A stretch of 64,000 nt of DNA from Dehalococcoidales bacterium (GCA_028717385.1 JAQUNW010000002.1:3465-67464); one strand, 5' to 3'. Positions 6,832-62,139 are shown, numbered from the stretch's first letter. Numbers and translations are program-made. Notes: generated from the letters alone by a model not told the origin.

Positions 6832-7830
6832 ATGGAGCTTAGCCCGGAAGAAAGGCAGCGGATATACCAGGAAGAAAAAGAGCGGATAGAACAAGAAAAA
6901 GCACAAGCGTCCAGCGCCAAAACCAGCACCCAGTTGCCTCAGAATGTGAGCGGGCTTTTATGTTACCTGGCTGGTTGGATTACCGGCATTATATTCTTGG
7001 TGCTTGAACCCAAAAACAGATTTATTCGCTTTCACGCCACTCAATCTATAGTAACTTTCGCCCCGCTGATGATATTAAGCGGCTTGCTGTCCCTCATCCC
7101 GGTAATTGGTGATGCCTTCAGCGCAATTATCGGCACACTGACTTTTGCCCTTTGGATAATACTCATGATAAAAGCCTACCAGGGTGAAATGTTCAGGCTG
7201 CCACTGGCAGGTGATATTGCAGCTTCTGCTATCAATGATATGCCCCAGACAAGCCAAGAAACTAAAACCGTTGCCCTTGCGAGGGAGACAACGGAAGATA
7301 CCGAACCAATAGCTGTTACTGCCGAAGCCGGGCAACGAGTACACACGGAAAGGGAAGGAAAGGATGACTCCTCCGGGCGTACTGGCCGATTAATTGGATA
7401 CTCATTCGGGATTATCTGGAACATAGCCCTTCTCATTTTCTTTACATGTTTTCACAGCTACATTGCCTGGTACCGGCATGTGCCCGGAGGAGGCTTTTCA
7501 CGTGCCCCGTTGCTCACCAGCGAATTTATGGTATGGCTTCCCATCTTCATTGTAGTAACAGTGCTTACCATTGCCGCCTACATTACGATGATAGTATATG
7601 ACCGCTACTGGTTCCGGGAAGCCACAGAAATGGTGTTGAATATTCTGGGTGTAATAGTAGTTGCCTCTCTTGCCAGCATATTCCCATTCGATTTCAGCAT
7701 AATTCCTGGAGGAGCAGAAACCGCGGTGGCAATTGCCGTAAAATCCAGCTTGATAATAATCGCTGTGATATTGGGAATTGCCGCCTTCGCGAGGTTCGTA
7801 AAGCTGATAGTGTACGCAGTAAGGCAATAA
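6832..7830 (+). CDS. DUF4870-like multi-pass membrane protein
   Basis: 'LLCYLAGWITGIIFLVLEPKNRFIRFHATQSI' motif. Immediately follows the SPFH gene with a 10-nt gap, so probably the same operon. Confidence 0.6.
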   Translation: MELSPEERQRIYQEEKERIEQEKAQASSAKTSTQLPQNVSGLLCYLAGWITGIIFLVLEPKNRFIRFHATQSIVTFAPLMILSGLLSLIPVIGDAFSAIIGTLTFALWIILMIKAYQGEMFRLPLAGDIAASAINDMPQTSQETKTVALARETTEDTEPIAVTAEAGQRVHTEREGKDDSSGRTGRLIGYSFGIIWNIALLIFFTCFHSYIAWYRHVPGGGFSRAPLLTSEFMVWLPIFIVVTVLTIAAYITMIVYDRYWFREATEMVLNILGVIVVASLASIFPFDFSIIPGGAETAVAIAVKSSLIIIAVILGIAAFARFVKLIVYAVRQ

Positions 7831-7929
7831 TGCCAAATTCATCATTATTCACCAAGCGAAAAAAAAGAGGGATTTTGGGCCAGCTTCTTAGATTAAACAA
7901 ACCTGAACCTGATCCGGTTTAAATACTTC

Positions 7930-7957
7930 GGCTGGGAATATAGCTATATTCCCAGCC
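7930..7957. repeat. perfect 28-nt palindrome (14-bp arms, no loop)
   Basis: ggctgggaatatag/ctatattcccagcc, read directly. Lies about 100 nt downstream of the 6832-7830 gene. No adjacent T-run. Confidence 0.7.
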
Positions 7958-8252
7958 ACTTGATAATCCCGCTATTTAATTCAAAATCCCCCGGTTTTAC
8001 TATCTTAGCAAGCCTCTAAACCCTCTGACAGCTTAATAGCTTTTTGCGCGGTTGTGATATAAATAAGGTGCCTATGGGTACGTTTCTTTTCTGTGCGCAA
8101 TGTTTTTTATTATTCGTTCTGTCAACACCGATACCCGAGCTGGAAAAAGAAATAAAGAATCGAAAAAAGTATTATTAGACCACTCATTCGGCAATACCTT
8201 GGTAGTATTTCTGGCGTTATAATAAGAGGCTGGGGAAAGGTAGAAGCTACAT

Positions 8253-8774
8253 ATGAAAAGCAGGAGCTTAATAACTGTCTTTGTTTTTTCTATTTTACTT
8301 ACACAGTTTACATGTGGCTGTAATACTCCTAAAGGCGAAGATCCCAGAAACAACCCTGATGTCCTGGCATCACTGGAAGAAGCCGGAAAGTTGATCGAAA
8401 AACTTTCAATCGCTGAAATAGATATACTGCCGCGTGGTTTTAAGGGATACGAGCTGTACTCTTGGCCAAAAGAAGAGAAGTGGATGTTTACCCTTATTAC
8501 CGGGACCAACCGCACCAAAACCGTGAAGGAGCTTACTACTGTTGAGGATTATATTTCTGAAACCGGCTGGGTAAACATCCATTGTTCAAGTGTAGATGAT
8601 ATACAAACAGCTTTGAGTAAATTGCCGGCAGGAGAACTGGTGGTCTGGTGCGGAGAATTACACATTGGAGAAACAGAGGGCGTAGATTTTAAACTGCCGC
8701 CTGAACAAATTGTTGGCGACATAAAAACACATTGTGAGGCGCTTGGTCTGGATTTAGTAGTTGGAGTAGGTTAA
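8253..8774 (+). CDS. hypothetical lipoprotein
   Basis: Signal peptide with lipobox-like FTCGC. No family recognised. The antisense ORF 8072-8518 is a shadow. Confidence 0.5.
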   Translation: MKSRSLITVFVFSILLTQFTCGCNTPKGEDPRNNPDVLASLEEAGKLIEKLSIAEIDILPRGFKGYELYSWPKEEKWMFTLITGTNRTKTVKELTTVEDYISETGWVNIHCSSVDDIQTALSKLPAGELVVWCGELHIGETEGVDFKLPPEQIVGDIKTHCEALGLDLVVGVG

Positions 8775-8886
8775 TTACTGACAGCTGAAACGCTAAATTA
8801 ATCACTGAAATACCGCCATTTTCCCTGATGCTGTTAAATATGCGACTTATTATTATATGTGGTAGTAAAAATTGTGAGGTGAAACG

Positions 8887-9279
8887 ATGAAAAAGCTATT
8901 GTTTACCGCCGTGGTACTCGTTCTATCCGCCTCGATGGCCTGGGGATGTACCAGCCAATCTGTAAAAGCCTACTACGACCCGGAAGAAGACATTGATTCT
9001 GGCGTCAGCAAGGAGTTTATTGTGCTGATTGCGCTTGAATCTAACCCTTCCACCGGCTACAGATGGGAAGCAGTTTACAACACAGAAATGCTTGAGCTTG
9101 TAGAGGAGACATTTGAACCAGGTGAATTTGCTAAAGAAAACATAGTTGGCGCCGGAGGTACTGAACTTTTCCGGTTCAAGGCATTAAACAAAGGCCAAAC
9201 TGACATCACTTTCAAGTATAAAAGATCCTGGGAAACTGAAGTCCTGGAAACCAAGATATTTACAGTTGAGATAAAGTAA
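8887..9279 (+). CDS. chagasin-family (I42) cysteine-peptidase inhibitor, secreted
   Basis: Signal peptide plus 'ESNPSTGYRWE' (NPTTGYxW motif) and 'FRFKALNKGQTDITFKYKRSWE'. Confidence 0.75.
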   Translation: MKKLLFTAVVLVLSASMAWGCTSQSVKAYYDPEEDIDSGVSKEFIVLIALESNPSTGYRWEAVYNTEMLELVEETFEPGEFAKENIVGAGGTELFRFKALNKGQTDITFKYKRSWETEVLETKIFTVEIK

Positions 9280-11990: not shown

Positions 11991-12006
11991 GGAGACGAGG
12001 TGAATT

Positions 12007-12354
12007 ATGTACATCGCTTCTCTGGAAAATACACCGAAAACCAAAATAGATATGGAGGGGGCTTATAAAGTATTCAAGCAGATTCCCCTTTCTAGCAAAC
12101 ATGGGGCACCAACCTGTTCTTTCCGTGTGTTTACTCTAGAACCCGGCGGCCATACTCCGCTTCACCGCCATGAAAATGAACACATGAACTATATAATCGA
12201 AGGTGCAGGCAACCTGGTGATTCAGGGCAAACATTACAACGTCAAGAAAGGCGATTTTGCTCTGGTATTACCAGGAGAGGAACATCAATACCGCAACACC
12301 TCAACCGATGAACCAATGGTAATGATCTGTGCTGTTCCCAAGGAATACGAATAA
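12007..12354 (+). CDS. cupin-domain protein
   Basis: 'GGHTPLHRHENEHMNYIIEG...GEEHQYRN' cupin motifs 1 and 2. Confidence 0.8.
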   Translation: MYIASLENTPKTKIDMEGAYKVFKQIPLSSKHGAPTCSFRVFTLEPGGHTPLHRHENEHMNYIIEGAGNLVIQGKHYNVKKGDFALVLPGEEHQYRNTSTDEPMVMICAVPKEYE

Positions 12355-12472
12355 GGATTAATATTTAATTATGCTAATTCGCTATTGATATCAACATACG
12401 CTTTACACAACTTATATGCCTGTTCTAGGGAGAGTGCAACATTAGCTTCCATTTACGTTCCTTTTAGGACAT

Positions 12473-12504
12473 AAAAAAGTGGCAGCGGCTGGATTTGGAC
12501 CAGC
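12473..12504. repeat. distal copy of the tRNA-Met 3' end (putative att remnant); also forms a hairpin downstream of the HesB-like gene
   Basis: aaaaaagtggcagcgGctggatttgGaccagC versus 14696-14727 aaaaaagtggcagcgActggatttgAaccagT. 29 of 32 positions are identical, and two of the three differences are compensatory in the T-stem. On the minus strand it reads AGCGGCTGG-TCCAAAT-CCAGCCGCT, then GCCAC, then TTTTTT. Confidence 0.75.
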
Positions 12505-12522
12505 CGCTTTAACCAGCGGCTA

Positions 12523-12822
12523 TCAACAACTGCAACCTTCACAGCCCGATTGCCCGGGTTTGCTGATTACAAATCCCTCTCCGTCCATTGATTGGATATA
12601 ATCAATCGTATTTCCGCCTGTAAAGGGTTTAACATTATCAGAAACCAAAAGGTTAATACTGTTTACCTGAATTGCGGTTTCATTCTCTCTTAACTCATCC
12701 AGAGCTAATCCTAAACGAGGCCCACCTCAACCAGCTTCAATCGTTATGCGTAAATATTTCCCAACATTTTCATCTAGTATTTCTTTTATTTTATCTCGGG
12801 CAGCATCAGTAATTTGTAACAA
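12523..12822 (-). CDS. HesB/IscA-like selenoprotein (in-frame UGA = Sec at codon 32)
   Basis: Absent from the track. Manual translation is MLQITDAARDKIKEILDENVGKYLRITIEAG-U-GGPRLGLALDELRENETAIQVNSINLLVSDNVKPFTGGNTIDYIQSMDGEGFVISKPGQSGCEGCSC. TGA lies at 12729-12727, where IscA-type proteins have the GGC(S)G cysteine. TTG start at 12822 has RBS AAGGA 7 nt upstream. Confidence 0.75.
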
Positions 12823-12866
12823 TATGTTTTCCTTTTCACCAATCAATGGTAATTATTATCGGTACT

Positions 12867-12916
12867 ACAGGTTTTATTCTATCATAAAAGAAGGTTGTTA
12901 AAATAATAAAACCTGT
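12867..12916. repeat. 12-bp perfect inverted repeat (ACAGGTTTTATT ... AATAAAACCTGT) with 26-nt spacer
   Basis: Read directly. Lies 45-95 nt upstream of the HesB-like start and about 150 nt downstream of ORF 13066-13407. Confidence 0.6.
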
Positions 12917-13065
12917 AAAGCAAGGCCAAACATGTTTAAGACATATGATTTCCTGGGAAACGTGATCATTAAAACTCTGTCAATGGTTTTAATGTAACTG
13001 CGAAAAAAGCTGTAATAAAGCGATGACGCCAGCGGGTAACAGGGCGACCTGTTTCTGTATTAAAT

Positions 13066-13407
13066 TTAGCGTACCTGGTTTATTTTTTCCGCCAGTTCAT
13101 CAGGGTTGCCGGGAGAAAGCACCATTCGCTGATAATTCCAGCCATTTAGAAAAATCACCAGGTGCTTCTTTCTAATTGTAGCGCACCAGAATTCTGCCCC
13201 TAAAGCAGTGTGGTATGTGCCGGCTTTAATAATAAACGGGATATTCGTTCCCGGGGAGCGCACTGCCAGCATGTTCCAGTCTGGCTTTTCAGCCAAGGCA
13301 CCGGTGATATTGACCAGCGGAACAGAAAACGATCCGTTGAAAGATATATATTTCTCTAAAAGATTAAGCTTAATGTCCAAATGATCTTGGTTAAGATAAA
13401 TCTTCAT
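13066..13407 (-). CDS. hypothetical protein (possibly bacterial PH-like domain)
   Basis: 113-aa track ORF. 'AVRSPGTNIPFIIKAGTY' weakly recalls bPH-type domains. Assignment is tentative. Confidence 0.4.
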   Translation of the reverse strand: MKIYLNQDHLDIKLNLLEKYISFNGSFSVPLVNITGALAEKPDWNMLAVRSPGTNIPFIIKAGTYHTALGAEFWCATIRKKHLVIFLNGWNYQRMVLSPGNPDELAEKINQVR

Positions 13408-13504
13408 TCTTTTTAGAAGCTGCTACCCGAAAGGCTTTACTCCCCGGGCTGCTCACTTTCGGCCTTGTAAGTTTATCACAACAAGGCTCCTCGGGAAAAA
13501 AGCA

Positions 13505-13753
13505 TTATTTGCCATTATTGTTCCTCACTGACAACAAGGTGGAAGCATAATGCGCTTTCCTTAATACTATTTTCCTCTCCACCTGGAGATCATTGTCCTG
13601 TTTCTCTGACTGCCAACAGTTGAAGTTGTTACAATACCAGAGGAAGCCTTTCAGTTTATCCGAGTAACACTCTATTGTTCCGTAGGATTTGCCTTCTACC
13701 TTGCAGGATAGTAAAAACTCATCGATTGCCTGTTTTACGCTTATATTAGACAT
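13505..13753 (-). pseudogene. tyrosine recombinase/phage integrase, N-terminal SAM-like domain remnant
   Basis: 'KQAIDEFLLSCKVEGKSYGTIECYSDKLKGFLWYC' is a typical integrase N-terminal core-binding region. The ORF stops after 82 aa and there is no catalytic domain (R..HxxR..Y) downstream. Confidence 0.6.
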
Positions 13754-13930
13754 TGGACCTGATCTCCTTCTCGTTTAGTTGCGTGCGAGTATAGTCTTCT
13801 TTCGGAGAAGGTCAATAGAGATGTGAGGCTTGTTATTTATGAAGAACCCCGTCTTTGCGTTTTAGGCTTGTCAGCATGTGTTATATTGTAATAACAATAT
13901 AAAGACTTAACGAAACAGGAGAAGCATATC

Positions 13931-14692: not shown

Positions 14693-14702
14693 ATGAAAAA
14701 AG

Positions 14703-14774
14703 TGGCAGCGACTGGATTTGAACCAGTGACCAAGGGCTTATGAGTCCCCTGCTCTACCACTGAGCTACGCTGCC
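14703..14774 (-). tRNA. tRNA-Met (anticodon CAT; could alternatively be a lysidine-modified tRNA-Ile2)
   Basis: The minus strand folds by eye as GGCAGCG TA GCTC AGTGGTA GAGC A GGGGA CTCATAA GCCCT TGGTC ACTGG TTCAAAT CCAGT CGCTGCC A. G1-C72 is paired, so this is not an initiator. No encoded CCA. Confidence 0.88.
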
Positions 14775-22014: not shown

Positions 22015-22446
22015 CCGCCAAGGGCCGTTTGGCCCAGTTACCGGTTTAATATATCACATTCAGTATAAAACCTTAAAGTCTAACCCTTCTTCTGTGCCTA
22101 AAAATTTATACATAGTGTTTAAATGTGGTTTTGTGTTACCTTTTATACAAGTATGGATTATTGGTAAACATAAAGAAAGTTTATTTTTCCCCCATTTTTT
22201 TCCCAGATACAGATGTGCCATTAAGCGCAAATTCGGGCGTTTAAGGGAGCTTTTCTGAGATTTTGGCGAGGGGTGCGTTTGCTCAATCCGCCACAAAAGC
22301 CTTGCCCTCGATATCGGGGTATTGTTAACATTACCCCCGGTTTTATAATATCTTTCTTTATAAATACCCTGGATTATTCATATCAGTCTGTATTTCCCGA
22401 TCGTACGGGTGAGAATCACTTATTTAAAAGGAGTTCTGGTTTAATA

Positions 22447-23772
22447 ATGCCTTTAGCACCACAAATATGGCAGGCGGCTCTCGGAGAATTAGAGCTTCAA
22501 ATGACCCGCCCTAATTTTAATACCTGGCTTAAAGGCACTACCGGGCTTAGTTTTAATGATGGTGTTTTTACAATTGGCGTCCCCAGTTCTTTTGTTGCTG
22601 AATACCTCGAAACAAGCCAATATTCACTTATAGAACGCACTATAATGCGACTCGCCTCCCGTAATGTTAAAATTTGCTTTCAAGTCACCGGTCCCGGTGC
22701 AGATAAAAACGGGCTCAACAACGACAGAAAAACCCCTGATACCACCGTCCACCATCGTTTTAATCCTAGATACACATTCGAAAGCTTTGTTACCGGCAAT
22801 GGCAATCAACTGGCTCACGCGGCGGCAGTAAGCACCGCAAAAGGACCTGGGCAACTCTATAATCCCCTGTTTTTATACGGAGGTGTGGGACTCGGTAAAA
22901 CCCACCTTCTTCATGCTATCGGTCACGTTGCAACAAAAAATAACTTGCAGGCGCTTTACGTCAGCGGCGAGCAGTTCACTAACGACTTTGTCGGCTCTAT
23001 TCGCTCAGGGAACGGAGAAGAATTCCGCAACCGTTATCGTAGTGTAGATATCCTCCTGGTAGACGATATCCAATTTATCAGTGGTAAAAACCAAACAGAA
23101 GAGTGTTTTTTCCATACCTTCAACGAATTGCATAACGGCTCTCGCCAGATAGTTCTTTCAAGTGATCGAACTCCAAAAGAAATGCCTTTGATTGAAGATC
23201 GCCTTCGTTCCAGATTTGAATGGGGGTTAACCGTTGATATACAACCACCAGAATTTGAAACTCGAATGGCAATACTTAAAGCTAAAGTAGAGCGTGATGG
23301 TATCAAGGTTATGCCCGAAGTACTTGAGTTTATTGCCAAAGAAATTAATACAAACGTACGCGAATTGGAAGGTTCACTTAACCGCATTACTGCTTATTCC
23401 AGGCTTCTCCAAGCAGAAATTACTCCCGAGCTTGCACGTAGAGCTATCACTGATATCGGTTCAGGTTCTAAAAACGGTCATTCACCGGATGCTATCATCC
23501 GTGAAGTTGCGGCCTCTTTTTCACTAGAACCTGATGATCTAACTGGTCCGCGTAGAGATAAAACCACCGCACTTGCCCGCCAATTGGCTATGTACTTATT
23601 GAAAAGTTATCATAACTACCCGCTTGTGCAGATTGGAGAGCTGTTGGGAGGGCGCAACGCCTCTACAGTTAGCCATGCGTGCGATAAGATATCACGAGAT
23701 ATCAATAACAACCCTCCTCTTAAACGACAAGTTGAAACCATTCGTAACAAGTTTTCTTCTTCATTAAGCTAA
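22447..23772 (+). CDS. dnaA: chromosomal replication initiator protein DnaA
   Basis: 'NPLFLYGGVGLGKTHLLHAIG' Walker A, 'LLVDDIQF' Walker B, and the C-terminal DNA-binding domain. Start chosen at ATG 22447 (MPLAPQIWQAALGELELQM), not track start 22273. Confidence 0.95.
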   Translation: MPLAPQIWQAALGELELQMTRPNFNTWLKGTTGLSFNDGVFTIGVPSSFVAEYLETSQYSLIERTIMRLASRNVKICFQVTGPGADKNGLNNDRKTPDTTVHHRFNPRYTFESFVTGNGNQLAHAAAVSTAKGPGQLYNPLFLYGGVGLGKTHLLHAIGHVATKNNLQALYVSGEQFTNDFVGSIRSGNGEEFRNRYRSVDILLVDDIQFISGKNQTEECFFHTFNELHNGSRQIVLSSDRTPKEMPLIEDRLRSRFEWGLTVDIQPPEFETRMAILKAKVERDGIKVMPEVLEFIAKEINTNVRELEGSLNRITAYSRLLQAEITPELARRAITDIGSGSKNGHSPDAIIREVAASFSLEPDDLTGPRRDKTTALARQLAMYLLKSYHNYPLVQIGELLGGRNASTVSHACDKISRDINNNPPLKRQVETIRNKFSSSLS

Positions 23773-25957: not shown

Positions 25958-26419
25958 ATGGAATTGGAATCAGATTTAGGTAATGAATCCTCAAATTTTT
26001 CGTGTTTTTTATGTGGTGAATGTTGCAGCCGATATCAGGTTAGGGTGAGTTTGTCTGAAGCCAGGTGCATCAGCGAGAAGTTGGGGATAGAATGTGAAGA
26101 TTTCCTTGAGCGTTATACTGACTCAAGGTGGCCAGGTGAAAAAAGCTTCCTTTTAATTCATCGAAATGGAGCCTGCGTGTTTCTTAAGCGGGTTGTTGGT
26201 GAGCACATCGCGATGTGCTCGATCCATAGTTTTAAACCGGATTCGTGTATACAATGGACGGCTGGACCATATCGGAAGGAATGCCGGTATGGTCTTGAGC
26301 GCTGTTGGAACCTGAGTATTGGGGAAAATGGGCAACTTATCGGCAGCCAGAATAATATCGACCGGTTTGAAAGCTTTGTTTCATCACTTGATTCGGAAAT
26401 GCCTGAACCTCAGGAATAA
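25958..26419 (+). CDS. YkgJ-family cysteine-cluster (UPF0153) protein
   Basis: 'CFLCGECCSRYQVRV' CxxCxxCC signature and later Cys residues. Confidence 0.7.
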   Translation: MELESDLGNESSNFSCFLCGECCSRYQVRVSLSEARCISEKLGIECEDFLERYTDSRWPGEKSFLLIHRNGACVFLKRVVGEHIAMCSIHSFKPDSCIQWTAGPYRKECRYGLERCWNLSIGENGQLIGSQNNIDRFESFVSSLDSEMPEPQE

Positions 26420-26551
26420 TAATATCGGCCAGCGGTTGTTATTCAGGCGATAAGATTTCTCGTATATAAACAGGCGCTTTACTGATATTCCAAAATTATA
26501 AAGAGCCTGATGGGACTTAAAACCTTTAATTCAGTATGATATAATGGCCTT

Positions 26552-26645
26552 GGAGGCGGATAGGCCCTGGTGGGTCTCGCGGACTTCAAATCCGTTGGCG
26601 GGGACCTGGTCGCCGCGGGGGGTTCGATTCCCTCCCCCTCCGCCA
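26552..26645 (+). tRNA. selC: tRNA-Sec (anticodon TCA)
   Basis: GGAGGCGG acceptor. Anticodon loop is C-T-TCA-AA, with the anticodon at 26586-26588. It has a long variable arm (gttggcggggacctggtcgccgc), T-loop GGTTCGATTCC and 3' ..CTCCG-CCA. It lies directly upstream of selD. Confidence 0.88.
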
Positions 26646-26684
26646 TCATTTGATTAGTAATCTGTTCGGAAAGGAGGCGCTCAA

Positions 26685-27734
26685 ATGCCTGATAAACCAG
26701 TAAATCTTATGAGCTTGTCGGAATACTCCGGCTGAGCAGCCAAAATAAGTCCGGGAGACTTAGAAAAAGCACTTAGCGGCCTGGAGTTTAAGTACAACCC
26801 CAACGTACTTGTAGGGATTGAAACTAACGACGATGCCGGCGTTTACCGCATTTCAGACGATACAGCATTGGTTCAAACGCTTGATTTTATTACCGCCATA
26901 GGAGACGGTGAAGGTTACACCTTTGGCCAAATAGCGGCGGCGAATTCCCTTTCGGACGTTTGGGCAATGGGAGGCAAGCCTATTACCGCTATGAGTATTG
27001 TTTGTTTTCCCTCAGATAAACTCGAGACATCAGTACTGCGTTCAATAATTTTGGGCGCATTGGATAAAGTTAATGAGGCCGGAGTGGCTCTGGTTGGTGG
27101 CCACAGTGTAAGGGATAATGAGCTTAAATTTGGCCTCTCGGTTACCGGTATTGTTCATCCGGACCGGATTATTACTAATAAAGGGGCTAGGCAGGGCGAT
27201 AAACTGATATTAACAAAACCGCTCGGTACCGGAATATTAAACACAGCCATGAAAGCCGGCATGCTGGAAGAAAGCCTTAAAAAGAAGACAGTAGGTTATA
27301 TGACTCGCTTGAACAAAGCCGCAGGAGAAGTTATGGCCGAGATGGGAGCCAGCGCTGCTACTGATATTACCGGTTTTGGCTTGATCGGGCATACCTGGGA
27401 AATGGCCAGCGGGAGCAATGTTGCAGTTCAGTTGGAGGTAACAAAGGTACCTGTATTGGAGAAGGTAATTGAATTCTCCCGTATGGGTATTGTGCCGGGT
27501 AAACTACACGATAATATTAATTATTATGCATGCCGAGTTGAGGGCGATCTGAAAAACGATGAGGACTGGATGAGTATCCTCAACGATCCTCAAACATCTG
27601 GTGGATTGCTTATTTCTGTTTCTGAAGATAAAGCCGGGGATATGCTCCGTTTCATACACGATTCCGGAAGTCCTGAGGCGGCCATTATTGGCCAGGTAAC
27701 CGAAGGGCACAAAGGGCATATATATCTAAAATGA
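26685..27734 (+). CDS. selD: selenide, water dikinase (selenophosphate synthetase), Sec-containing (UGA at 26733-26735)
   Basis: Track shows only 26868-27734. Manual upstream translation is MPDKPVNLMSLSEYSG-U-AAKISPGDLEKALSGLEF...DDAGVYRISDDTALVQTLDF, in frame. U aligns with the catalytic Cys/Sec of SelD (E. coli ..GAGCGCKISP..). RBS is AAGGAGG. Confidence 0.9.
26746..26762 (+). promoter_or_regulatory. candidate SECIS hairpin for selD
   Basis: TAAGTC-CGGGA-GACTTA, a 6-bp stem with a 5-nt G-rich loop. It starts 11 nt after the UGA. Confidence 0.5.
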
Positions 27735-29134
27735 GCAAGGCTGAATTAAACCCGGATAAAGACAAGCTTAATCAGGAAATGCGCAAGCTGCCCCAGGTAG
27801 AGGTGCTTCTTTCCAGCCATGAACTGGAAACTCCTGTAAAACGTTACAGCCGGCCGTTGGTTATGCAGGCGATATCCAGGGTACTCTCTTTTGCCCGTGC
27901 TGGTATTGCCAACGGTAAGCCTTCTCCTTCCCAAGAAGAATTGGTTAAGCTTATAATTGCCGATCTTGATGAAAACTGGCCAGGCTTCGGCAGCCCGGTA
28001 ATTAATGCCACCGGAGTTGTTTTGCACACCAATTTGGGAAGAGCCCCACTACCGAAGGCGGCTTTGAAAGCTGTCAACCATCTCTGCGGGGATTTTTCTG
28101 TATTGGAATATGATTTGAAAACTGGCAAGCGCGGGCGGCGCGCCCAGGACCTTGAAAAATTGCTTGCGATTCTTACCGGCACCGAAACTGCCATGGTGGT
28201 TAATAATAATGCGGCTGCGGTGCTGCTCATTCTAGTTGCCTTGGCCAACGGTCGTGAGGCCATAGTATCTCGAGGTGAATTGGTACAAATTGGCGGTGGT
28301 TTTCGGGTACCCGAGATTATGGAGCAGAGTGGGGTTAAGCTGACAGAAGTAGGTACAACAAACCAGACCTATTTGATCGACTACGAAAAGGCGATCAACG
28401 AAAACACCGGCTTGCTGCTGAAGGTTCATCGTTCCAACTTTGCTTTGCGTGGTTTCATCAACGAAGTGAGCGTTGCCGAACTCATGAAACTGGGCAAGAG
28501 GCACCACCTGCCAGTAGTGTATGACGTTGGGAGCGGATCATTTTTTGATACACAGGAATATGGAATGGAATATGAACCTACCGTTCCCGATGCGGTTAAA
28601 GAGGGAGCGGATATAATCTGCTTTTCCGGCGATAAGCTCTTTGGGGCATCACAAGCTGGGATTATCGTAGGAAAAAAAGAATACATAGATAAAATGCGTT
28701 CTCATCAGCTGCTGCGGGCAATACGGATAGATAAAATGGCAACTGCTGTACTTGAAGCCGTTACCCTGCTTTACCTTAATAAGGAAGCAAAACAGGCGGT
28801 TCCGGTATGGCACATGATGGGAATCACCGCAGAAGAAATCAGCGAGCGGGCAAAGGCGCTTGCTGCCAAAATAAACTTGTCAGGAATTACGGCAGAAGTA
28901 AAACCTGGTTTGAGCATGGTTGGGGGCGGTTCTCTTCCTGACCAGACACTGAGCACCTTTGTGGTGACTATCAAGCCTGAAATCTCATTAGAGGCCTTCT
29001 CATCACGCTTGCGGGTGAGTACGCCACCTGTTATTGGGCGTATAGAAGATGAGCGCTTTGTTCTTGACCTGCGCACCGTTTTTCCCGAGCAAGAAGAAGT
29101 TCTTCTGCAACAGATAACGGAAAATGCCAGATAG
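27731..29134 (+). CDS. selA: L-seryl-tRNA(Sec) selenium transferase
   Basis: 467 aa. 'INATGVVLHTNLGRA' and the PLP region 'FSGDKLFGASQAGIIVG'. ATG overlaps the selD stop (ATGA). Confidence 0.9.
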   Translation: MSKAELNPDKDKLNQEMRKLPQVEVLLSSHELETPVKRYSRPLVMQAISRVLSFARAGIANGKPSPSQEELVKLIIADLDENWPGFGSPVINATGVVLHTNLGRAPLPKAALKAVNHLCGDFSVLEYDLKTGKRGRRAQDLEKLLAILTGTETAMVVNNNAAAVLLILVALANGREAIVSRGELVQIGGGFRVPEIMEQSGVKLTEVGTTNQTYLIDYEKAINENTGLLLKVHRSNFALRGFINEVSVAELMKLGKRHHLPVVYDVGSGSFFDTQEYGMEYEPTVPDAVKEGADIICFSGDKLFGASQAGIIVGKKEYIDKMRSHQLLRAIRIDKMATAVLEAVTLLYLNKEAKQAVPVWHMMGITAEEISERAKALAAKINLSGITAEVKPGLSMVGGGSLPDQTLSTFVVTIKPEISLEAFSSRLRVSTPPVIGRIEDERFVLDLRTVFPEQEEVLLQQITENAR

Positions 29135-29139
29135 CTTTC

Positions 29140-31014
29140 ATGTTGACTATTGGTACAGCCGGCCATATAGACCACGGTAAATCCAGCCTTGTAAAAGCCC
29201 TTACTGAGATTGACCCAGACCGCTTGCCGGAGGAAAAAATCCGTGGTATGACACTGGATCTGGGGTTCGCCTGGCTCAGTCTTCCATCAGGGGAAAAAGT
29301 CGGTATAGTCGATGTTCCTGGCCATGAACATTTTGTTCGTAATGTTATACCCGGTATAAGCGGGATTGACGGTGTTATTCTACTTGTGGCTGCCGATGAT
29401 GGCTGGATGCCCCAGACCGAAGAACACATGCGAATTATTAATTTGCTGGGTATACAAAACTGCATCATCGCACTAAATAAAATAGACATTGTAACAGATG
29501 AAGAGTGGCTTGAATTGGTTGAGGCGGACATCACCGAAAGACTGAAAGGCACCTCATTGGAAGGATCCCCGATTATTCGGATTAGTGCACGTGAAGGCAC
29601 CGGAATAAATGAGCTGAAGGATGCCATTTCCAGTTTGGTTCAGCGGGTAAAAACTGGTCGCGATATCGGAAAGCCCCGCCTTCCGGTTGATCGTGTTTTC
29701 ATTATTAAGGGGAGTGGGGTGGTTGTCACCGGCACCCTCCATTTTGGAGCTCTTTCAGCAGGGGACGACATAGTAGTTCTTCCTGCAAATACCCCTGCTC
29801 ATATCAGAAGCATAGAATGCTATAAGGAGACCTCAAAGAAAGTCGAACCAGGGTGCAGAGTGGCTTTAAACCTGAGTGGAGTTAAAAAAGATGACCTGGG
29901 CCGTGGAGATGTCATAGTCCCTGCATGGGGAGATAAAAGTACTAGTAAAATCGTAAATACACGAATAAGTCTTTTGCTTAACCCCGAGTTTAGCCTGAAA
30001 AATGGGGAAGAGGTGCTTATATACATTGAAACCGGAGAGTACATAAGCCGGGTTGCCCTGATGGGTACCAGGGAACTTATTGGGGGAGACACAGGCTTTG
30101 TACAGCTAAAGCTTGACCGGGAAGCACCAGTATACATTGGCCAGCGATTAATCGTCCGCAGACAATCTCCCGCTGATACAATCGGGGGAGGCGTCGTGCT
30201 AGATCCGTTTGCCAGCCCGTTTAAAGCGCGGTATACAGACACAACAATATCCTGGCTGCACCGGCGTGAGGACTTGCAGGTCGAAAACCTAATTTTGACT
30301 GAACTGGAAAAAAAACACTTCGTTGAACGTAATGGTGTTCTTTCGTACTCCTTTTATTCGCAGGATGATATCAATGCCGTGGTGGATGAACTTGTTAAAC
30401 AAAAGACCGTTGGAATCAAAGCCGGCTATCTGTTCCAATTGGAAGACTGGCAGGAGAAGAAGAATGAGACGCGGAGAATTATTGATCTTGAGCACCAGAA
30501 AAATCCTCTTAAGCGCGGAATAACCGGAACCGCTTTGCAGGTTAAGATTGGCTTACCCCGGGAAATACTCACAACCATGGTTGAAGAGATGCTTACTGAT
30601 GGTATTATTTACCGTGACGGGGAGTGGCTTGCGATATCAGGATACAAACCTGGATTGTCATCACAACAGCAAGCAGCTGAAGGGCAGATAATGTCCCTTT
30701 TTAAAGCGGCTCCTTTTGCACCCCCGACCCTCAAGGAGTTACTCAGGCAGTTTCCAGGCAATGAAGATGTTATATATTTCCTGATGGATAAAGGGGAGTT
30801 AGTGCAATTTGCCGACGGAATATTGCTTGAAAAAATTACCTACAATAAAATCAAGAGCGAGGTGACCGCTTTTCTCAAGGCTAATGGGCAACTAGCAATA
30901 CAAGATATGAACAAGTTGTTTGGCCTTACCAGGAAGTACACGATCCCTGTTCTTGGACAGCTTGATAAGGAAAAGGTAACCAAGAGAGAGGGAGACGTCA
31001 GGGTTCTTGGCTGA
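29140..31014 (+). CDS. selB: selenocysteine-specific translation elongation factor
   Basis: 'IGTAGHIDHGKSSLVKALT' G1, 'DVPGHEHF' G3, 'NKIDIV' G4, plus a long C-terminal winged-helix extension (624 aa). Confidence 0.9.
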   Translation: MLTIGTAGHIDHGKSSLVKALTEIDPDRLPEEKIRGMTLDLGFAWLSLPSGEKVGIVDVPGHEHFVRNVIPGISGIDGVILLVAADDGWMPQTEEHMRIINLLGIQNCIIALNKIDIVTDEEWLELVEADITERLKGTSLEGSPIIRISAREGTGINELKDAISSLVQRVKTGRDIGKPRLPVDRVFIIKGSGVVVTGTLHFGALSAGDDIVVLPANTPAHIRSIECYKETSKKVEPGCRVALNLSGVKKDDLGRGDVIVPAWGDKSTSKIVNTRISLLLNPEFSLKNGEEVLIYIETGEYISRVALMGTRELIGGDTGFVQLKLDREAPVYIGQRLIVRRQSPADTIGGGVVLDPFASPFKARYTDTTISWLHRREDLQVENLILTELEKKHFVERNGVLSYSFYSQDDINAVVDELVKQKTVGIKAGYLFQLEDWQEKKNETRRIIDLEHQKNPLKRGITGTALQVKIGLPREILTTMVEEMLTDGIIYRDGEWLAISGYKPGLSSQQQAAEGQIMSLFKAAPFAPPTLKELLRQFPGNEDVIYFLMDKGELVQFADGILLEKITYNKIKSEVTAFLKANGQLAIQDMNKLFGLTRKYTIPVLGQLDKEKVTKREGDVRVLG

Positions 31015-31100
31015 CCTGCAAAAAGGGTTTTTCTTTACAAGTAGAACGAGCTCTCATATAATTTAGAGCAGCCCAGGCTCCATGGGACACTTTTTAACAC

Positions 31101-31184
31101 GCCGGGGTGGCGGAATCGGCAGACGCAGCGGACTTAAAATCCGCCGGAATAAAATCCGTGTGGGTTCGACCCCCACCCCCGGCA
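31101..31184 (+). tRNA. tRNA-Leu (anticodon TAA)
   Basis: GCCGGGG acceptor, anticodon loop CT-TAA-AA, long variable arm, T-arm GTGGGTTCGACCCCCAC and 3' CCCCGGC-A. Track ORF 31094-31297 is an artefact over it. Confidence 0.9.
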
Positions 31185-31194
31185 CGCCAAATGT

Positions 31195-41001: not shown

Positions 41002-41988
41002 ATGGAGCGCCCAACAAGCGAATTGGATCATTTCCCCAGGCTGTTAAGAGTCTACCAGATACTCGCCGATAGTAAAGAAGGAGTTACCGCGAAGACATTG
41101 TCCAAAAATTTAGAGGTTAATGTACGCACAGTCTATCGAGATATCAAAGAACTGGAACAGGCAGGAGTCCCTATTTGGGAGGAGCAATCCAGGTATCGTA
41201 TCAGCAACAAGCATTTTCTGCCGCCGCTAAACCTGACAGTGCCGGAAGCAATCCAGGTTTTCCTTTCATTGCGGTTGCTGTTGCAGTATGCACGGCGAAA
41301 CAGTGTTGACGTGGCCAGCCTGTTTCTTAAATTAAAGAAGATTGTACCTGTGCCGTTGCAGGATGAAATCGCCAAAACTTCGCGGTGGATGCAGGATTTG
41401 CCATCAAATCCGCGGCTGAACCGTAATATTTCATTGTTGGCACAATCCTGGGTTTCCCGCTTAAGGGCAAAAATATTATATAAGTCTCTTGACGCTGAGA
41501 CTGCTACGAGCCGTATGATAGAGCCTTATTTCATAGAGCCTGCAGCCAGCGGGCGCTCATGTTATGTAATTGCATATTGCCTGTTGAAGAAAGAGATCCG
41601 TACCTTTAAAGTAGAAAGAATTCAGAGTGTTCATATAACTGAAGAAAAGTACGAGATTCCCAAAGAATTCGATGCTAATCGTTATCTTAGTCCGTCACTC
41701 GGCATCATGGTAACCAGTGATGAATTGACAAAAATCAAACTCAGGTTCAAACAGAAGATTGCACGCATTATCGAGGAATCTGTTTGGCATCCATCTCAGA
41801 AACTGGTTAATAACGAAGACGGATCTCTTACAATGACGATGGAAATAAACGAATCTCCTGAATTGGTAAAATGGGTACTTGGATGGGGGGACAGCGTTGA
41901 AGTGGTTTCGCCGGACTGGCTTCGGGATGATATAAAAAACCAGACAGCCAGGATGGCTGCTGTCTATTCTAAAACAAAACATTTTTGA
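41002..41988 (+). CDS. HTH-WYL domain transcriptional regulator (PafBC/BrxR-like architecture)
   Basis: N-terminal wHTH 'VTAKTLSKNLEVNVRTVYRDIKELEQAGVPI', central WYL region 'SCYVIAYCLLKKEIRTFKVERIQSV', and a C-terminal extension. Confidence 0.8.
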   Translation: MERPTSELDHFPRLLRVYQILADSKEGVTAKTLSKNLEVNVRTVYRDIKELEQAGVPIWEEQSRYRISNKHFLPPLNLTVPEAIQVFLSLRLLLQYARRNSVDVASLFLKLKKIVPVPLQDEIAKTSRWMQDLPSNPRLNRNISLLAQSWVSRLRAKILYKSLDAETATSRMIEPYFIEPAASGRSCYVIAYCLLKKEIRTFKVERIQSVHITEEKYEIPKEFDANRYLSPSLGIMVTSDELTKIKLRFKQKIARIIEESVWHPSQKLVNNEDGSLTMTMEINESPELVKWVLGWGDSVEVVSPDWLRDDIKNQTARMAAVYSKTKHF

Positions 41989-42024
41989 CGGGGAAAGACT
42001 CAACTAAAGGATATACTAATCGAT

Positions 42025-42525
42025 ATGCAGGATGCGTATATAGATATTGAAACCACTGGACTTTCTTCTATGTCTTGCTCGATAACAGTGGTGGGTATTT
42101 ATCGTGTGGACCAGGCCGAGAGTCAGCTGGTTCAGCTGGTTGGAAATAATATTACCCGCGCCAGTATTGAGCAAGCGGTCTGTGGAGTAGATACGATTTA
42201 TACTTATAATGGGCAAAGGTTTGATCTGCCCTTTATCTACGATGCTTTGGGACTGGATTTAAACCAGCATTGCCGGTCTCATCGGGATTTGATGTTTGAC
42301 TGTTGGCGTCATAACCTTTATGGAGGGCTAAAAAAGGTAGAAGTTAAGCTGGGCATCTCCCGCCAAATAGAGGGAATCGGTGGATGGGAAGCAGTATTGC
42401 TCTGGCGGCGCTACCAACAGTACGGTGATACCCAGGCACTAGATACCTTGCTCAAGTATAACGCCGAAGACGTAATGAACCTGAAAATACTGAAAGAAAA
42501 ACTCGATTCTATAAACCGAGTTTAG
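42025..42525 (+). CDS. RNase-H-like (YprB/PF13482-type) predicted 3'-5' exonuclease
   Basis: 'AYIDIETTGL' Exo I motif and 'TYNGQRFDLPFI' motif. Confidence 0.7.
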   Translation: MQDAYIDIETTGLSSMSCSITVVGIYRVDQAESQLVQLVGNNITRASIEQAVCGVDTIYTYNGQRFDLPFIYDALGLDLNQHCRSHRDLMFDCWRHNLYGGLKKVEVKLGISRQIEGIGGWEAVLLWRRYQQYGDTQALDTLLKYNAEDVMNLKILKEKLDSINRV

Positions 42526-45582: not shown

Positions 45583-47514
<1,932 letters not shown>

Positions 47515-55860: not shown

Positions 55861-58560
55861 TTAAACTTTCCGCAAATTTACAGGGCAAACCTTTAGCCCT
55901 GGAATTTTTGCTACCGGATCCAAAGCGTCTGATGTAAGTTGGTTCACTGGTGATTCCTTGAAGTGGAAAGGCATGAAAACCACTCCGGGTGGTGATTTTT
56001 CACTCACTTCAACCTCGGCATAAATCTTGCCTCTCGGGGAATACAACTCAACAACATCTCCATTCACGCACCCCAGTTTAGTTGCTTGTTCGGGATTGAT
56101 TTCAATTCTGCCTTCCGGGCAAATTTCAGTAAGTCCAGGTGACTGGCGGCTGATTGATCCCCCGTGCCAATGGTAAAGGTTTCTGCCGGTGGATAAGGTT
56201 AGCGGGTAGTCTTTATTTGGTACAGCAGTGGCAGGCTGATATTCAACCGGAACAAATTTACCCTTTCCTCGAGTAAATGAACCCAGGTGTAAAAACCTGG
56301 TTCCCGAGTCGTGTAAATCTCGACATGGCCATTGCAAGCCGCCGTATTCAAGCCGTTCGTATGTGATTCCACCGTAGGTTGGTGTGAGGCTTGCAGCTTC
56401 TATCATCACTTGGGAAGGGTGAGAATACTGCATTGGATACCCCATTCTTTGGGAAATATTCATAATAATCTCCCAGTCCGGCCGGCTGAAGGCAACTGGA
56501 TGGATGGCTTTGCGAATCCGCTGGACACGCCTTTCGGTATTGGTAAAAGTACCGTCTTTCTCGGCAAAGCTGGTGCCAGGTAGTACAATATCAGCATATC
56601 GACCGGTTTCGCCCAAGAAAATATTTTGTACAATTAAAAAATCTAATTTTTTAAGCGCGTTTGCCACATGCTTTGAATTGGGATCAGTGAGTGCTGGTTC
56701 CTCTCCCATAATATACATGCCCCTGATTTTTCCTGATTCTGCCGCGTGCATCATTTCAACGAGGGTAAGACCAGCCTTGCATTGCAGTTTTACCTTCCAG
56801 GCGGTTTCAAATTTTTTCCTGGTTGCGTCATCATTTACCGGTTGATATCCCGGAAGCACGTTGGGTAGGGCTCCCATATCACAGGCTCCCTGGACGTTGT
56901 TTTGACCGCGGAGAGGGCATAACCCTGATCCTTCCCGGCCGATATGGCCGGTTGCCATTGCCAAATTCGCCAGGGCGATGACATTGCCGGTTCCACCTAA
57001 ATGCTGGGTTATTCCCATTGCGTAAAGGATCATCGCTGTTTTACTGGTTGCATACAGGCGGGCTGCGGCGGATAGTTCATTGGCTGGAATACTGGTAATA
57101 CGGCTGACAGCATCCACTGTATATGGTGCGACTGTTTTACGAACTTCTTCAAAGCCTTCGGTCCGGTTGCGAATGAAATCGAGATCGGCTAGATTTTCAG
57201 ATATTATTATGTTCAACAGTCCGTTTATCAGAGCAGTGTCAGTGCCTGGCTTGAGGCGTAACCATAGACTGGCATGTTCGGTCATATTTATACGCCTGGG
57301 ATCGGCGACAATCAATTTTGCTCCCTGGTTCTTGACCGCCTCTATTACCTCAAGTGAGATGACAGGATGGTTTTCGCCAGTATTGGAGCCGATAATAAAA
57401 ATACAGTTACTATGGCTGATTTCTGAAATAGAATTAGTCATGGCCCCGCTGCCGAAAGTTGTGGCCAGACCGGCCACAGTGGGAGAATGTCAGAGGCGAG
57501 CGCAGTGATCGATGTTGTTAGTACCGATTACCGCACGAGCAAACTTCTGAAGAAGGTAGTTTTCCTCGTTGGTGCACTTGGCTGAAGAAAGAAACGCCAG
57601 GGAGTCTGGTCCGCTTTCGGCTCTGATGCCAGCAAGCCTTTCGGCTATTGTATCTATGGCTTCTTCCCAGCTGGCACTCCTAAATTTGCCTTCTCCTTTT
57701 TCTCCGATTCGTATTAAAGGGCTTTCAAGTCTTTCTGGGCTATATATATAATCCCAACCGAATTTTCCTTTCACACAAAGGCGGCCATTGTTTACATTTT
57801 CGCCCGTAGCGGGTGATACACTTACGATGCGTCCGTTTTTAGTATTAAGCTCAATATTGCAGCCTACTCCGCAATATGAACAGACCGTTGGGGTCTTCTC
57901 GATTTCCCAGTTTCTCCCGGCTCCTACCCGGCTTTTCTCCACCAGGGCACCAGTAGGGCAGGCTGCAACGCATTGGCCGCAAAAAACACAGGGACTCTCT
58001 TTTAGCGAACGGTCGTAAGCAGTGGCAATTTTACAATTGAATCCCCGGTTCGCAAAGGAGATGGCCTCAACGAATTGTATTTGCTTACAGGCAGCCACGC
58101 AGCGCCCGCAAAGTATGCACTTGTTATAATCCCGGATGAAGAACGGATTGGTCGTATCTGAGGGGTAATTATGCCTTTCCCCATTATATCTGGAGCCGGA
58201 TACCCCCAGTTCGTAGGCATATTTTTCAAGATTGCAATTACCGCTTTTCTCGCACGTCATGCAATCAAAAGGATGGTTTGAAAGAAGCAGCTCAATTACA
58301 CTTCTGCGAGCGCTGAGAGCTCTTTCTGAGGCAGTTTTAATTACCATGCCGCCAGCAACCGGTGTGGCGCATGAGGCAGCCAGGTTCCTTGCTCCTTCTA
58401 CTTCTACCACACACAAACGGCAGCCTCCGCTGGCTGGCAGGTTATCCATATAACAAAGGTGAGGAATTTCTATTCCTGCTTCGCGAGCGGCTTCCAAAAT
58501 GGAAACACCTTCTTCGGTTTCTATAACCTTTTCGTCTATTGTCAGTCTAATTTTTGCCAA
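55861..58560 (-). CDS. fdhA: formate dehydrogenase alpha subunit (NuoG-type N-terminus), selenocysteine-containing; UGA at 57492-57490
   Basis: Track ORFs 57490-58560 and 55861-57477 are in the same frame, joined by TGA. The junction reads ..[30 protein letters not shown].., the canonical FDH active-site Sec context. The N-terminus has 2Fe-2S and 4Fe-4S cysteine motifs. Confidence 0.9.
57461..57477 (-). promoter_or_regulatory. candidate SECIS hairpin for fdhA
   Basis: On the minus strand, 12 nt after UGA: GUGGCC-GGUCU-GGCCAC. This is a 6-bp stem (7 bp with the flanking U-A pair) and a GGUCU apical loop, as in the E. coli fdhF SECIS. Confidence 0.65.
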
Positions 58561-58563
58561 GGT

Positions 58564-61500: not shown

Positions 61501-61653
61501 CATTTCAGAAAGCTCCCGGGAAAAAGCCTCATAAACCATGCGTCCGCCCTGGGCGTTACACCCGGTACCGCCGCATATCTTTATGTATATTGCATTGCCG
61601 TTTTTTGCGGCTTGCAGAGAACTCTGAAAATTATCAAACTCTGCCAAATTCAT
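58564..61653 (-). CDS. fused NuoF-like (NADH/FMN/4Fe-4S) and GltD-like (FAD/NAD(P)H, Fe-S) oxidoreductase subunit
   Basis: N-terminal thioredoxin-like 2Fe-2S domain, then 'GRGGAGFPTGRKW' and 'ESCGKCTPCRLG' (NuoF). This is followed by a 'CPLNV..GICGRVCHHPCETRCRRG' Fe-S region and 'IAIVGSGPAGLNAGYHLAKKGYSVTIFE' (GltD-like). Confidence 0.85.
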   Translation of the reverse strand: MNLAEFDNFQSSLQAAKNGNAIYIKICGGTGCNAQGGRMVYEAFSRELSEMGLNDRVILSATGCHGFCERGPIVSIQPSGIFYPQVTPNDVKEIISTTIIGKQVVDHLLYVDPASGKKQAFDREVPFYAKQQRIVLAGNGNLDPQSIHDYISNGGYQAVRKVLSSMTPELVIEEILASGLRGRGGAGFPTGRKWDLARKAAGDRKYMVCNGDEGDPGAFMDRSIMEGDPHLVLEGMIIGAFATGASTGYIYVRAEYPLAVSNLKLAIEDAKRLGLLGDNILNSGYSLEIRVIEGAGAFVCGEETALMASIEGKIGRPHPRPPFPAQSGLWGKPTNINNVETLANVAYIINQGSAKYAAIGTETSKGTKIFSLTGAVNNTGLVEVPMGTTLGELIYDIGGGIPEGRRFKAVQIGGPSGGCLPSKYLGLPIDYESLSGIGSIMGSGGLVVMDESSCMVDIARFFISFTQSESCGKCTPCRLGTKRMLEILTRITSGEGREGDIELLLELAENIKDTSLCGLGQNAPNPVISTIKYFREEYEVHIREKRCPAASCESMVYAPCEHICPLNVDAPGYIALISQGKFEEALELERRRNPLAGICGRVCHHPCETRCRRGDIDQPVSIAALKRAAADFGAENRTGVIKKLKPARKEKIAIVGSGPAGLNAGYHLAKKGYSVTIFEALPVAGGMLAAGIPEFRLPRRVLQADINFITSLGVEIKLNSPVASIEELKRQGYSAILLATGAHTGEKLGISGEDLNGVYDGISYLKQINLGNEINPGKKVVVIGGGNVAIDTARAARRLGAELVTIVYRRPRRDMPANDDEISEAEQEGIQILDSTSPLQIMGSKAKVYGVECLRTSPGVYDTSGRRRPEIIPGSDFCLEADTVIAAVGQIPDTSFLNQSGAIKINTNKTIGINNITMQTGHEGVFAAGDNVTGPLTVIEAMAGGERAAISIDCYIRGIPFDKDRFRVNNTPVDIPWSEEEIELGSRSLIPELTPAERDGNFNETSLGFSWDNAIREARRCLRCDLKEN

Positions 61654-61677
61654 TTCAGTAAAAATACCCCAGATGGC

Positions 61678-62139
61678 TTAAGGAAGATTTTCAATCAGCG
61701 CTTCGACCTTTCCCGGTGTCATTTTCCCATAATATTTGCTATCAACAAGCACTACCGGTCCCATAGCGCAGGCACCAAGACAGGCGACTGTTTCCAGGGT
61801 GAACCTATAATCCGGCGTGGTTTGGCCATCTGATATTCCGAGTCGTTTTTCTATAGCTTCCAAAACAGCCTTTCCTCCTCTGACATGGCAGGCTGTTCCG
61901 CGGCAGGCGCGAATAATATTTCTACCCCTGCGTTCCAGGTAAAATTGTGAGTAGAAAGTAGCTATGGAATATATGCGGCTCATGGGAATGTTTAGCGCTC
62001 TGCTGACAATGTTAAGACCTTCTTCTGGCAAATAGCCAAATATTTGCTGAATTTCTTGTAAAAGCGTAATCAGCCCGTCTTCACGGCCGATGTATTTTTC
62101 TACCAGTGGTTTTATTACCGAAATATCGGGTTCCTCCAC
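61678..62139 (-). CDS. NuoE/HydC-like [2Fe-2S] thioredoxin-fold subunit
   Basis: 'IRACRGTACHVRG...LETVACLGACAMGPV' Cx4C..Cx3C motif. GTG start with RBS AGAGAGG. Confidence 0.85.
   Translation of the reverse strand: MEEPDISVIKPLVEKYIGREDGLITLLQEIQQIFGYLPEEGLNIVSRALNIPMSRIYSIATFYSQFYLERRGRNIIRACRGTACHVRGGKAVLEAIEKRLGISDGQTTPDYRFTLETVACLGACAMGPVVLVDSKYYGKMTPGKVEALIENLP

Follow-up and report, generated by a model that had tools for sequence, protein, structure and literature searches.

Reportedly, Gursinsky et al. in 2000 (Arch Microbiol 174:200) described a selDABC cluster in Eubacterium acidaminophilum, the selD gene of which is also said to carry an in-frame UGA. Selenophosphate synthetases, the products of selD, form the second-largest selenoprotein family of prokaryotes, and they are frequently misannotated (PMC13326102). 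The gene is rarely contiguous with selA and selB, an exception being that of Photobacterium profundum (Romero et al. 2005, PMC1273633). A class of selenocysteine tRNA (tRNA-Sec) with a 12-base-pair (bp) acceptor-plus-T (AT) stem, the 7/5 fold, was described by Santesmasses et al. 2017; its carriers include Dehalogenimonas lykanthroporepellens, and selA, selB and selD usually lie near such tRNA genes (PMC5330540). Dehalococcoidia are counted among the selenoprotein-rich bacteria (BSepDB paper). The stretch of DNA analysed here, referred to as the window, comprises 64,000 nucleotides (nt) from a Dehalococcoidales bacterium (GCA_028717385.1, JAQUNW010000002.1:3465-67464) and holds genes for tRNA-Sec, SelD, SelA and SelB between positions 26,552 and 31,014. 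We read this sel locus, with a probability of about 0.9, as the chromosomal selenocysteine (Sec)-decoding operon of an uncultured member of the Dehalococcoidales (Chloroflexota), and the reading includes a Sec-type SelD. The features on which it is built are as follows.

26552..26645, + strand: selC, tRNA-Sec (ARAGORN, Rfam RF01852, minimum free energy (MFE) fold)
26670..26677, + strand: Shine-Dalgarno sequence of selD, AAAGGAGG, 7 nt before ATG 26685 (read from the sequence)
26685..27734, + strand: selD, selenophosphate synthetase, 349 codons (translation, TIGR00476, Pfam, structure alignments)
27731..29134, + strand: selA, L-seryl-tRNA(Sec) selenium transferase (TIGR00474, Pfam SelA and Se-cys_synth_N)
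29140..31014, + strand: selB, Sec-specific elongation factor (TIGR00475, Pfam)

SelD and its selenocysteine tRNA

All four gene identities proposed by a first-pass annotation of the window are agreed upon by ARAGORN, Rfam, NCBIfam, Pfam and the structure alignments. The translated selD frame, 26685-27734, contains a single internal TGA (26733-26735) at codon 17, between LSEYSG and AAKISPGDL, followed by Lys at codon 20, and its terminal UGA works as a stop. With U replaced by C, the product scores 371 bits on TIGR00476 (cut-off 125) over residues 8-316, entering the profile at position 2, and 325.7 on NF002098 (cut-off 299), and it contains the N- and C-terminal AIRS domains (PF00586 and PF02769). 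Alignment of the product with E. coli SelD (3u0o) begins at its residue 3, and with Aquifex aeolicus SelD (2yye) at its residue 6. Residue for residue, U17 falls on E. coli Cys17 and K20 on E. coli Lys20, and the A. aeolicus loop reads SSGCAAKVGPGDL where YSG-U-AAKISPGDL is found here. When each species was represented by a single genome, the scan yielded 80 selD loci, and at the 56 loci from other lineages with a locatable motif the Cys17-equivalent codon is TGA in 33 and Cys in 23. The closest four, L001-L004, belong to metagenome-assembled genomes (MAGs) of Dehalococcoidales/Dehalococcoidia and share 76-86% amino acid identity with the window's SelD over residues 1-349; each has TGA at codon 17 and the motif SG-U-AAKISPGDL, as does locus L082.

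Where does the gene begin? The mechanical open reading frame (ORF) starts at TTG 26868 (26868..27734), the truncation to which the first-pass annotation had drawn attention. Public gene calls begin there or nearby: the JGI call P0001 is a 100% identical, truncated form of 288 residues, and public calls of the SelD family mostly span 284-328 residues. Such calls are what would be expected if the TTG were the true start, the 61 upstream codons a leader, and the product a short SelD or a pseudogene. This explanation is extremely improbable given that the protein sequence of the 61 codons is kept in five relatives, where most changes are synonymous (the 16 codons upstream of UGA17 are conserved in five related Dehalococcoidales genomes), that this sequence matches both the catalytic loop at the N-terminus of SelDs with solved structures and TIGR00476 from its position 2, and that ATG 26685 is preceded by a strong Shine-Dalgarno sequence kept in L001-L003 and L082. 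Moreover, a product beginning at residue 62 would have no Cys/Sec17-Lys20 loop. The earlier proposal of a start at ATG 26685 with read-through of a UGA at the catalytic Cys/Sec position therefore stands; alignment of homologues from residue 62 onward only, which had been named as the outcome that would speak against it, is not what was found, with alignments starting at residues 3-8.

A second question is whether UGA17 is read as Sec at all, the alternatives being a reassigned code (Trp or Gly) or near-cognate read-through. Some annotation pipelines did assume code 4 or 25 for related sequences, and most database homologues of a HesB-like gene elsewhere in the window (described below) are translated with W at its internal UGA. 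However, those W calls also run through the terminal UGA, which points to an artefact of code-4 style gene calls, and two NCBI homologues have Cys at the internal position. UGA is an ordinary stop in 8 of the 47 window genes, selD and selB among them, so the genetic code is not reassigned. The full Sec machinery adjoins the gene, and the residue at this position of Cys-type SelDs is Cys, the classic Sec/Cys pair. Decoding of UGA17 as anything other than Sec is, on these grounds, very improbable. Judged from its sequence, SelD is a predicted Sec-type selenoprotein with Sec at the equivalent of the catalytic Cys17, missed by standard gene callers.

The tRNA gene is called by ARAGORN as tRNA-SeC with anticodon tca at 26551-26644, and RF01852 matches 26552-26641 with 70.2 bits (gathering score 47). 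Its anticodon is UCA, its D stem has 6 bp and closes a 4-nt loop, its variable arm is long, the discriminator is G73, and CCA is encoded. Both predictors thus accept a tRNA-Sec, and the rejection that would have spoken against the first-pass annotation did not occur, but the 8/5 fold expected beforehand (13 bp of acceptor and T stem) is not the one present. Only 12 nt (CCCUC CCCCUCC) separate the T-loop from G73, instead of the 13 nt found in E. coli selC and in the tRNA-Sec of L027, L048 and L056. Since the 5' strand of the acceptor has 8 nt, C6 is bulged, and the MFE fold shows an acceptor stem of 5 bp, bulge and 2 bp. The acceptor stem (7 bp, C6 bulged) and the T stem (5 bp) consequently add up to a 12-bp AT stem. 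The acceptor and T arms are identical in L002, L003, L004 and L082, and paired changes occur in the D and variable arms of relatives (L002, L082). The identification of selC is secure despite the non-8/5 stem and fits the documented 12-bp variant class. As a separate observation, the contigs of the related MAGs L001 and L003 end inside tRNA-Sec or exactly at its 5' end, which suggests that the assembly broke there or that the junction at this gene varies in those populations.

The two remaining proteins also belong to their families and, like SelD, score well above the curated cut-offs. SelA scores 561 bits on TIGR00474 (cut-off 268) and combines PF03841 with the N-terminal tRNA-binding domain PF12390. 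SelB scores 369 bits on TIGR00475 (cut-off 242) and comprises GTP_EFTU (PF00009), Beta-barrel_SelB (PF25461), SelB-wing_2 (PF09106) and SelB-wing_3 (PF09107), such that its C-terminus consists of winged-helix domains that bind the selenocysteine insertion sequence (SECIS).

The hairpin behind UGA17

Decoding of UGA17 as Sec would call for a SECIS hairpin, and one candidate lies behind the codon.

26739..26770, + strand: candidate SECIS, with core hairpin 26746-26762 and an optional 2-3-bp outer helix GCY/RGC

The core, UAAGUC-CGGGA-GACUUA, has 6 bp and is set off from the UGA by 10 nt. A bacterial SECIS was taken to be a stem-loop directly 3' of the UGA with a G-containing apical loop ~16-37 nt from it; the loop CGGGA starts 17 nt after UGA17, so position and loop both agree with this definition. 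A hairpin can be formed in every relative, with a 6-7-bp stem and a G-rich loop of 3-5 nt located 17-20 nt after the UGA. Among five selD orthologues, pairwise synonymous divergence is 0.56 gene-wide and 0.23 at codons 14-25, the lowest of 338 twelve-codon windows, which is centred on the UGA and the hairpin. The geometry also resembles that of the fdhA SECIS in the same window, and the apical loops of the three selenoprotein candidates found in the window all have 5 nt with GG (CGGGA in selD, GGUCU in fdhA, UGGAU in hesB). In the SelD SECIS of Acetomicrobium mobile, the apical loop lies at the same distance from the UGA (BSepDB paper).

A number of results weigh against the hairpin in this form. 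The 6-bp stem and 5-nt loop noted in the first-pass annotation do exist, yet they find no energetic support: the folding energy of -4.9 kcal/mol is not beyond chance (z = -0.78, with 47 of 200 shuffles equal), and single-sequence folding of the 71-nt context is not significant either. RNAalifold on five relatives keeps the stem and returns no double compensatory change. In L001 one pair of the proposed register is broken; there, as in L082, a register moved by 4 nt (UCCRGG/CCUGGA) gives the better fold. When 26640-26900 was searched against Rfam by E-value for a curated SECIS family, all matches were at chance level, and the low synonymous divergence could stem in part from other constraints at the 5' end of the gene. 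Downstream MFE does not separate Sec-type from Cys-type SelDs (-17.4 against -18.1 kcal/mol) and says little for or against the hairpin, the Cys-type genomes being more GC-rich.

One explanation for these results is that the hairpin at 26746-26762 is not the functional SECIS and that SelB binds another or a larger structure, such as the shifted UCCRGG/CYUGGA stem or a helix enclosing the UGA, CUCCGG/CCGGGAG. The insignificant energy, the better-folding register of L001 and L082 and the lack of covariation among relatives all speak for such a structure, as does the fact that the conserved block reaches upstream of the UGA, where UCCGGC is invariant. Nevertheless, the 6-7-bp stem and G-rich loop at a near-constant distance can be drawn in each relative, and the loop placement matches both the fdhA element of the window and the published Acetomicrobium SelD SECIS. 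We consider a different structure unlikely, though a good deal less so than a different start or meaning of the codon. What makes the selD hairpin a plausible SECIS is where it lies and how it is conserved rather than folding energy or covariation, and the hairpin region, leaving the pairing register aside, is a probable one.

Transcription, translation and setting of the operon

The regulatory and boundary features of the locus are the following.

26517..26545, + strand: promoter-like site, TTAAAA, 17-nt spacer, TG-extended TATAAT (consensus scan, 10/12 + TG)
31034-31062, + strand: promoter-like site of tRNA-Leu(UAA) (consensus scan)
31101..31185, + strand: tRNA-Leu(UAA), downstream boundary of the sel locus, kept in relatives (ARAGORN)

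The first of these sites ends 6 nt before the 5' end of tRNA-Sec and is conserved at the same position, as CTTAAA and TATGnTATAAT in L002 and L004 and as gtgaTATAAT in L082, so that it appears to be a sigma-70-type promoter. In the 39-nt spacer between the tRNA and selD, the consensus scan found no promoter-like or terminator-like site. Because the promoter stands before the tRNA and the spacer is free of such sites, tRNA-Sec and selD-selA-selB probably share a single transcript, the tRNA being excised from it. As described in the first-pass annotation, the ORF map has the selA ATG overlapping the selD TGA stop (ATGA) and selB starting 5 nt past the selA stop; both the overlap and the short gap before selB recur in L001-L003. 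No Shine-Dalgarno sequence comparable to that of selD was seen before selA or selB, which leaves selD as the sole ORF of the operon with one. Given these three properties, selA and selB are probably coupled in translation to selD, by way of ribosomes that have read this gene to its end and so have decoded UGA17.

What might such an arrangement do? By the established steps of the Sec pathway, seryl-tRNA synthetase (SerRS) would load serine onto tRNA-Sec, SelD would produce selenophosphate, SelA would turn Ser-tRNA-Sec into Sec-tRNA-Sec, and SelB would bring Sec-tRNA-Sec to UGA codons that have a SECIS hairpin behind them. If decoding of UGA17 needs Sec, the production of SelD would depend on its own product pathway. 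UGA17 and its candidate SECIS lie in the one ORF that has a Shine-Dalgarno sequence; with selA and selB coupled to this ORF and sharing a transcript with tRNA-Sec, the operon could form a bistable positive-feedback switch gated by selenium, turning selenium use on or off, in which the whole Sec machinery is translated only in proportion to Sec decoding. We put this forward as a speculative reading that is rather unlikely to be correct; if true, it would go beyond the dependence of SelD on Sec that is already in the literature.

An alternative is that tRNA-Sec and selDAB form separate transcripts and that selA and selB are translated independently, which would leave the UGA without any operon-level role. 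The sequence of the 39-nt spacer is not conserved among relatives, weak promoter-like matches were found by the consensus scan inside selD and selA, and a selD without adjacent selAB exists in L004. Set against these points are the site-free spacer, the position of the sole conserved promoter upstream of the tRNA, and the tight junctions that are kept in relatives for two genes without their own Shine-Dalgarno sequences. Separate units are therefore the less favoured arrangement, although of all the alternatives considered here this one is the least unlikely, and a joint transcript with coupled translation remains our preferred reading.

Among the 80 selD loci, selD is directly followed by selA-selB in L001-L003 only, and L081-L083 show the same layout. 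The order miaB-like, dnaA, obg, nadD, CxxCxxCC, selD, selA, selB is found in L081-L083 and is kept, with tRNA-Sec placed in brackets before selD, in GCA_030153525.1. In L027, L056 and L070, selA and selB lie within 6 kb in other arrangements. Two considerations temper the operon reading at this level. L004 has tRNA-Sec and selD with no selA-selB behind them, so the four-gene unit is not obligatory in the clade, and Sec insertion, transcript structure and translational coupling have all been inferred. Behind selD on the L004 contig (Dehalococcoidia MAG B1Sed10_130R1, 7252-8959, - strand) are genes for a rhodanese-like protein and a YeeE/YedE-like membrane protein, assigned by eye and on the strand opposite selD; these proteins could be selenium or sulfur delivery or transport partners of SelD.

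The chromosomal setting is that of a core region. Some 3 kb separate the sel locus from the upstream dnaA gene (22273-23772), and the flanks are core housekeeping genes (dnaA, obg, nadD, ksgA, gyrB, hisS, lexA, relA). Given these flanks, the conserved synteny and an unremarkable composition, the idea of a mobile island, or of one gained by horizontal transfer, was rejected for the sel locus. The turning point of the cumulative GC skew, a minimum, lies at ~22-24 kb, at dnaA, and gyrB lies at 45589-47514; the window probably spans the replication origin. Directly upstream of tRNA-Sec is a gene for a CxxCxxCC protein (PF03692, YkgJ-like; 153 residues, 25958-26419), which holds the same upstream position in L004 and L081-L083. 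As read from the sequence, the gene layout is compact and origin-proximal, and the lineage is one predicted to use selenocysteine.

Other selenoprotein genes and comparison with known systems

When the whole window was scanned crudely for hairpins behind UGA codons, most matches were false positives, for example a frame through tRNA-Ser, but the scan recovered fdhA and led to a HesB-like gene. These two candidates for clients of the Sec machinery and the neighbours of fdhA are listed below.

12523..12846, - strand: HesB/IscA-like client selenoprotein candidate, 107 codons, uncalled (UGA, PF01521)
55861..58560, - strand: FdhA, formate dehydrogenase alpha subunit, client selenoprotein, ~900 residues (UGA and SECIS)
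58564-61653, - strand: NuoF-like/GltD-like fusion, 1029 residues
61678-62139, - strand: NuoE-like 2Fe-2S protein

The last three form a formate dehydrogenase cluster at 55861-62139 on the - strand. The Sec of FdhA lies at UGA 57492..57490 in the context IDHCARL-U-HSPTVAGL, where the ORF finder splits the gene, and the SECIS (57478..57460) begins 11 nt after the UGA, with a 7-bp stem, the loop GGUCU and z = -2.87. In the HesB-like protein, Sec would correspond to UGA 12729..12727 (EAG-U-GGPRLG); its score on PF01521 is 29.9 bits (gathering score 26.3), and it falls below the cut-offs of NF038090 and TIGR01911. GC content reaches its lowest value in the window (0.41) in the surrounding 12000-13930, which holds short ORFs only, among them a cupin gene (12007-12354) and an 82-residue fragment that resembles the N-terminus of a tyrosine recombinase (13505-13753, - strand), with a PLD-like gene and tRNA-Met (14702-14774) coming after it; this stretch may be what is left of an integrated element. 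Elsewhere, 41002-42525 holds an HTH-WYL-WCX regulator and, after a short gap and in the same frame, an RNase H-superfamily gene (PF13482).

The practical value of the analysis is one of annotation. Public SelD calls here and in relatives are short by 25-60 residues and are without the catalytic loop, and callers split or overlook two more selenoprotein genes of the window. The finding amounts to a correct re-annotation of a system that is already known, since Sec-type SelD, its self-dependence, sel clusters and the 7/5 tRNA-Sec have all been described. The feed-forward dependence proposed in the first-pass annotation is sound in its logic but not new: Guimaraes et al. 1996 are said to have posed the self-dependence, or autoregulation, of SelD/SPS2 as a question in their title. 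What sets the locus apart is only that the tRNA gene comes first and that the tRNA has a 7/5 fold, the latter itself already described.

Compared with known Sec-type SelD/SPS2 proteins (H. influenzae, M. jannaschii, mammalian SPS2, and A. aeolicus 2yye/2zod), in which Sec replaces the Cys of the catalytic loop, SelD here is an orthologue in another lineage. The A. aeolicus loop SG-U-AAK-x-x-PGDL is nearly identical, and the logic of self-dependence is the same, with no mechanistic difference. The tRNA shares with the 12-bp class of Santesmasses et al. the 7 nt between T stem and G73, a nucleotide that bulges out of the acceptor stem and an anticodon stem that is probably bulged, and the carrier Dehalogenimonas likewise belongs to the Dehalococcoidia. 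As in the E. acidaminophilum selDABC cluster, the four Sec-decoding components are contiguous and selD is the first of the sel protein genes, whereas the tRNA gene stands before selD instead of after selB, and the host is one of the Chloroflexota, not the Firmicutes.

Two E. coli operons offer parallels for the organization of expression. In the tufB operon (thrU-tyrU-glyT-thrT-tufB), the mRNA of an elongation factor is transcribed together with the tRNA genes upstream of it, which provides a precedent for a tRNA-mRNA co-transcript, although neither recoding nor Sec is involved there. For E. coli selAB, Thanbichler and Boeck reportedly described in 2002 a translational control by SelB and a SECIS-like element. 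In both that operon and the present one, a SECIS-type element heads the sel operon and would tie expression of the machinery to SelB/Sec-tRNA status. The E. coli element, however, lies in an untranslated leader and is repressive, while here a decoded UGA with its SECIS in the first ORF would act positively, and it is only such operon-level selenium gating through translational coupling, if true, that would add something new to the systems already described.

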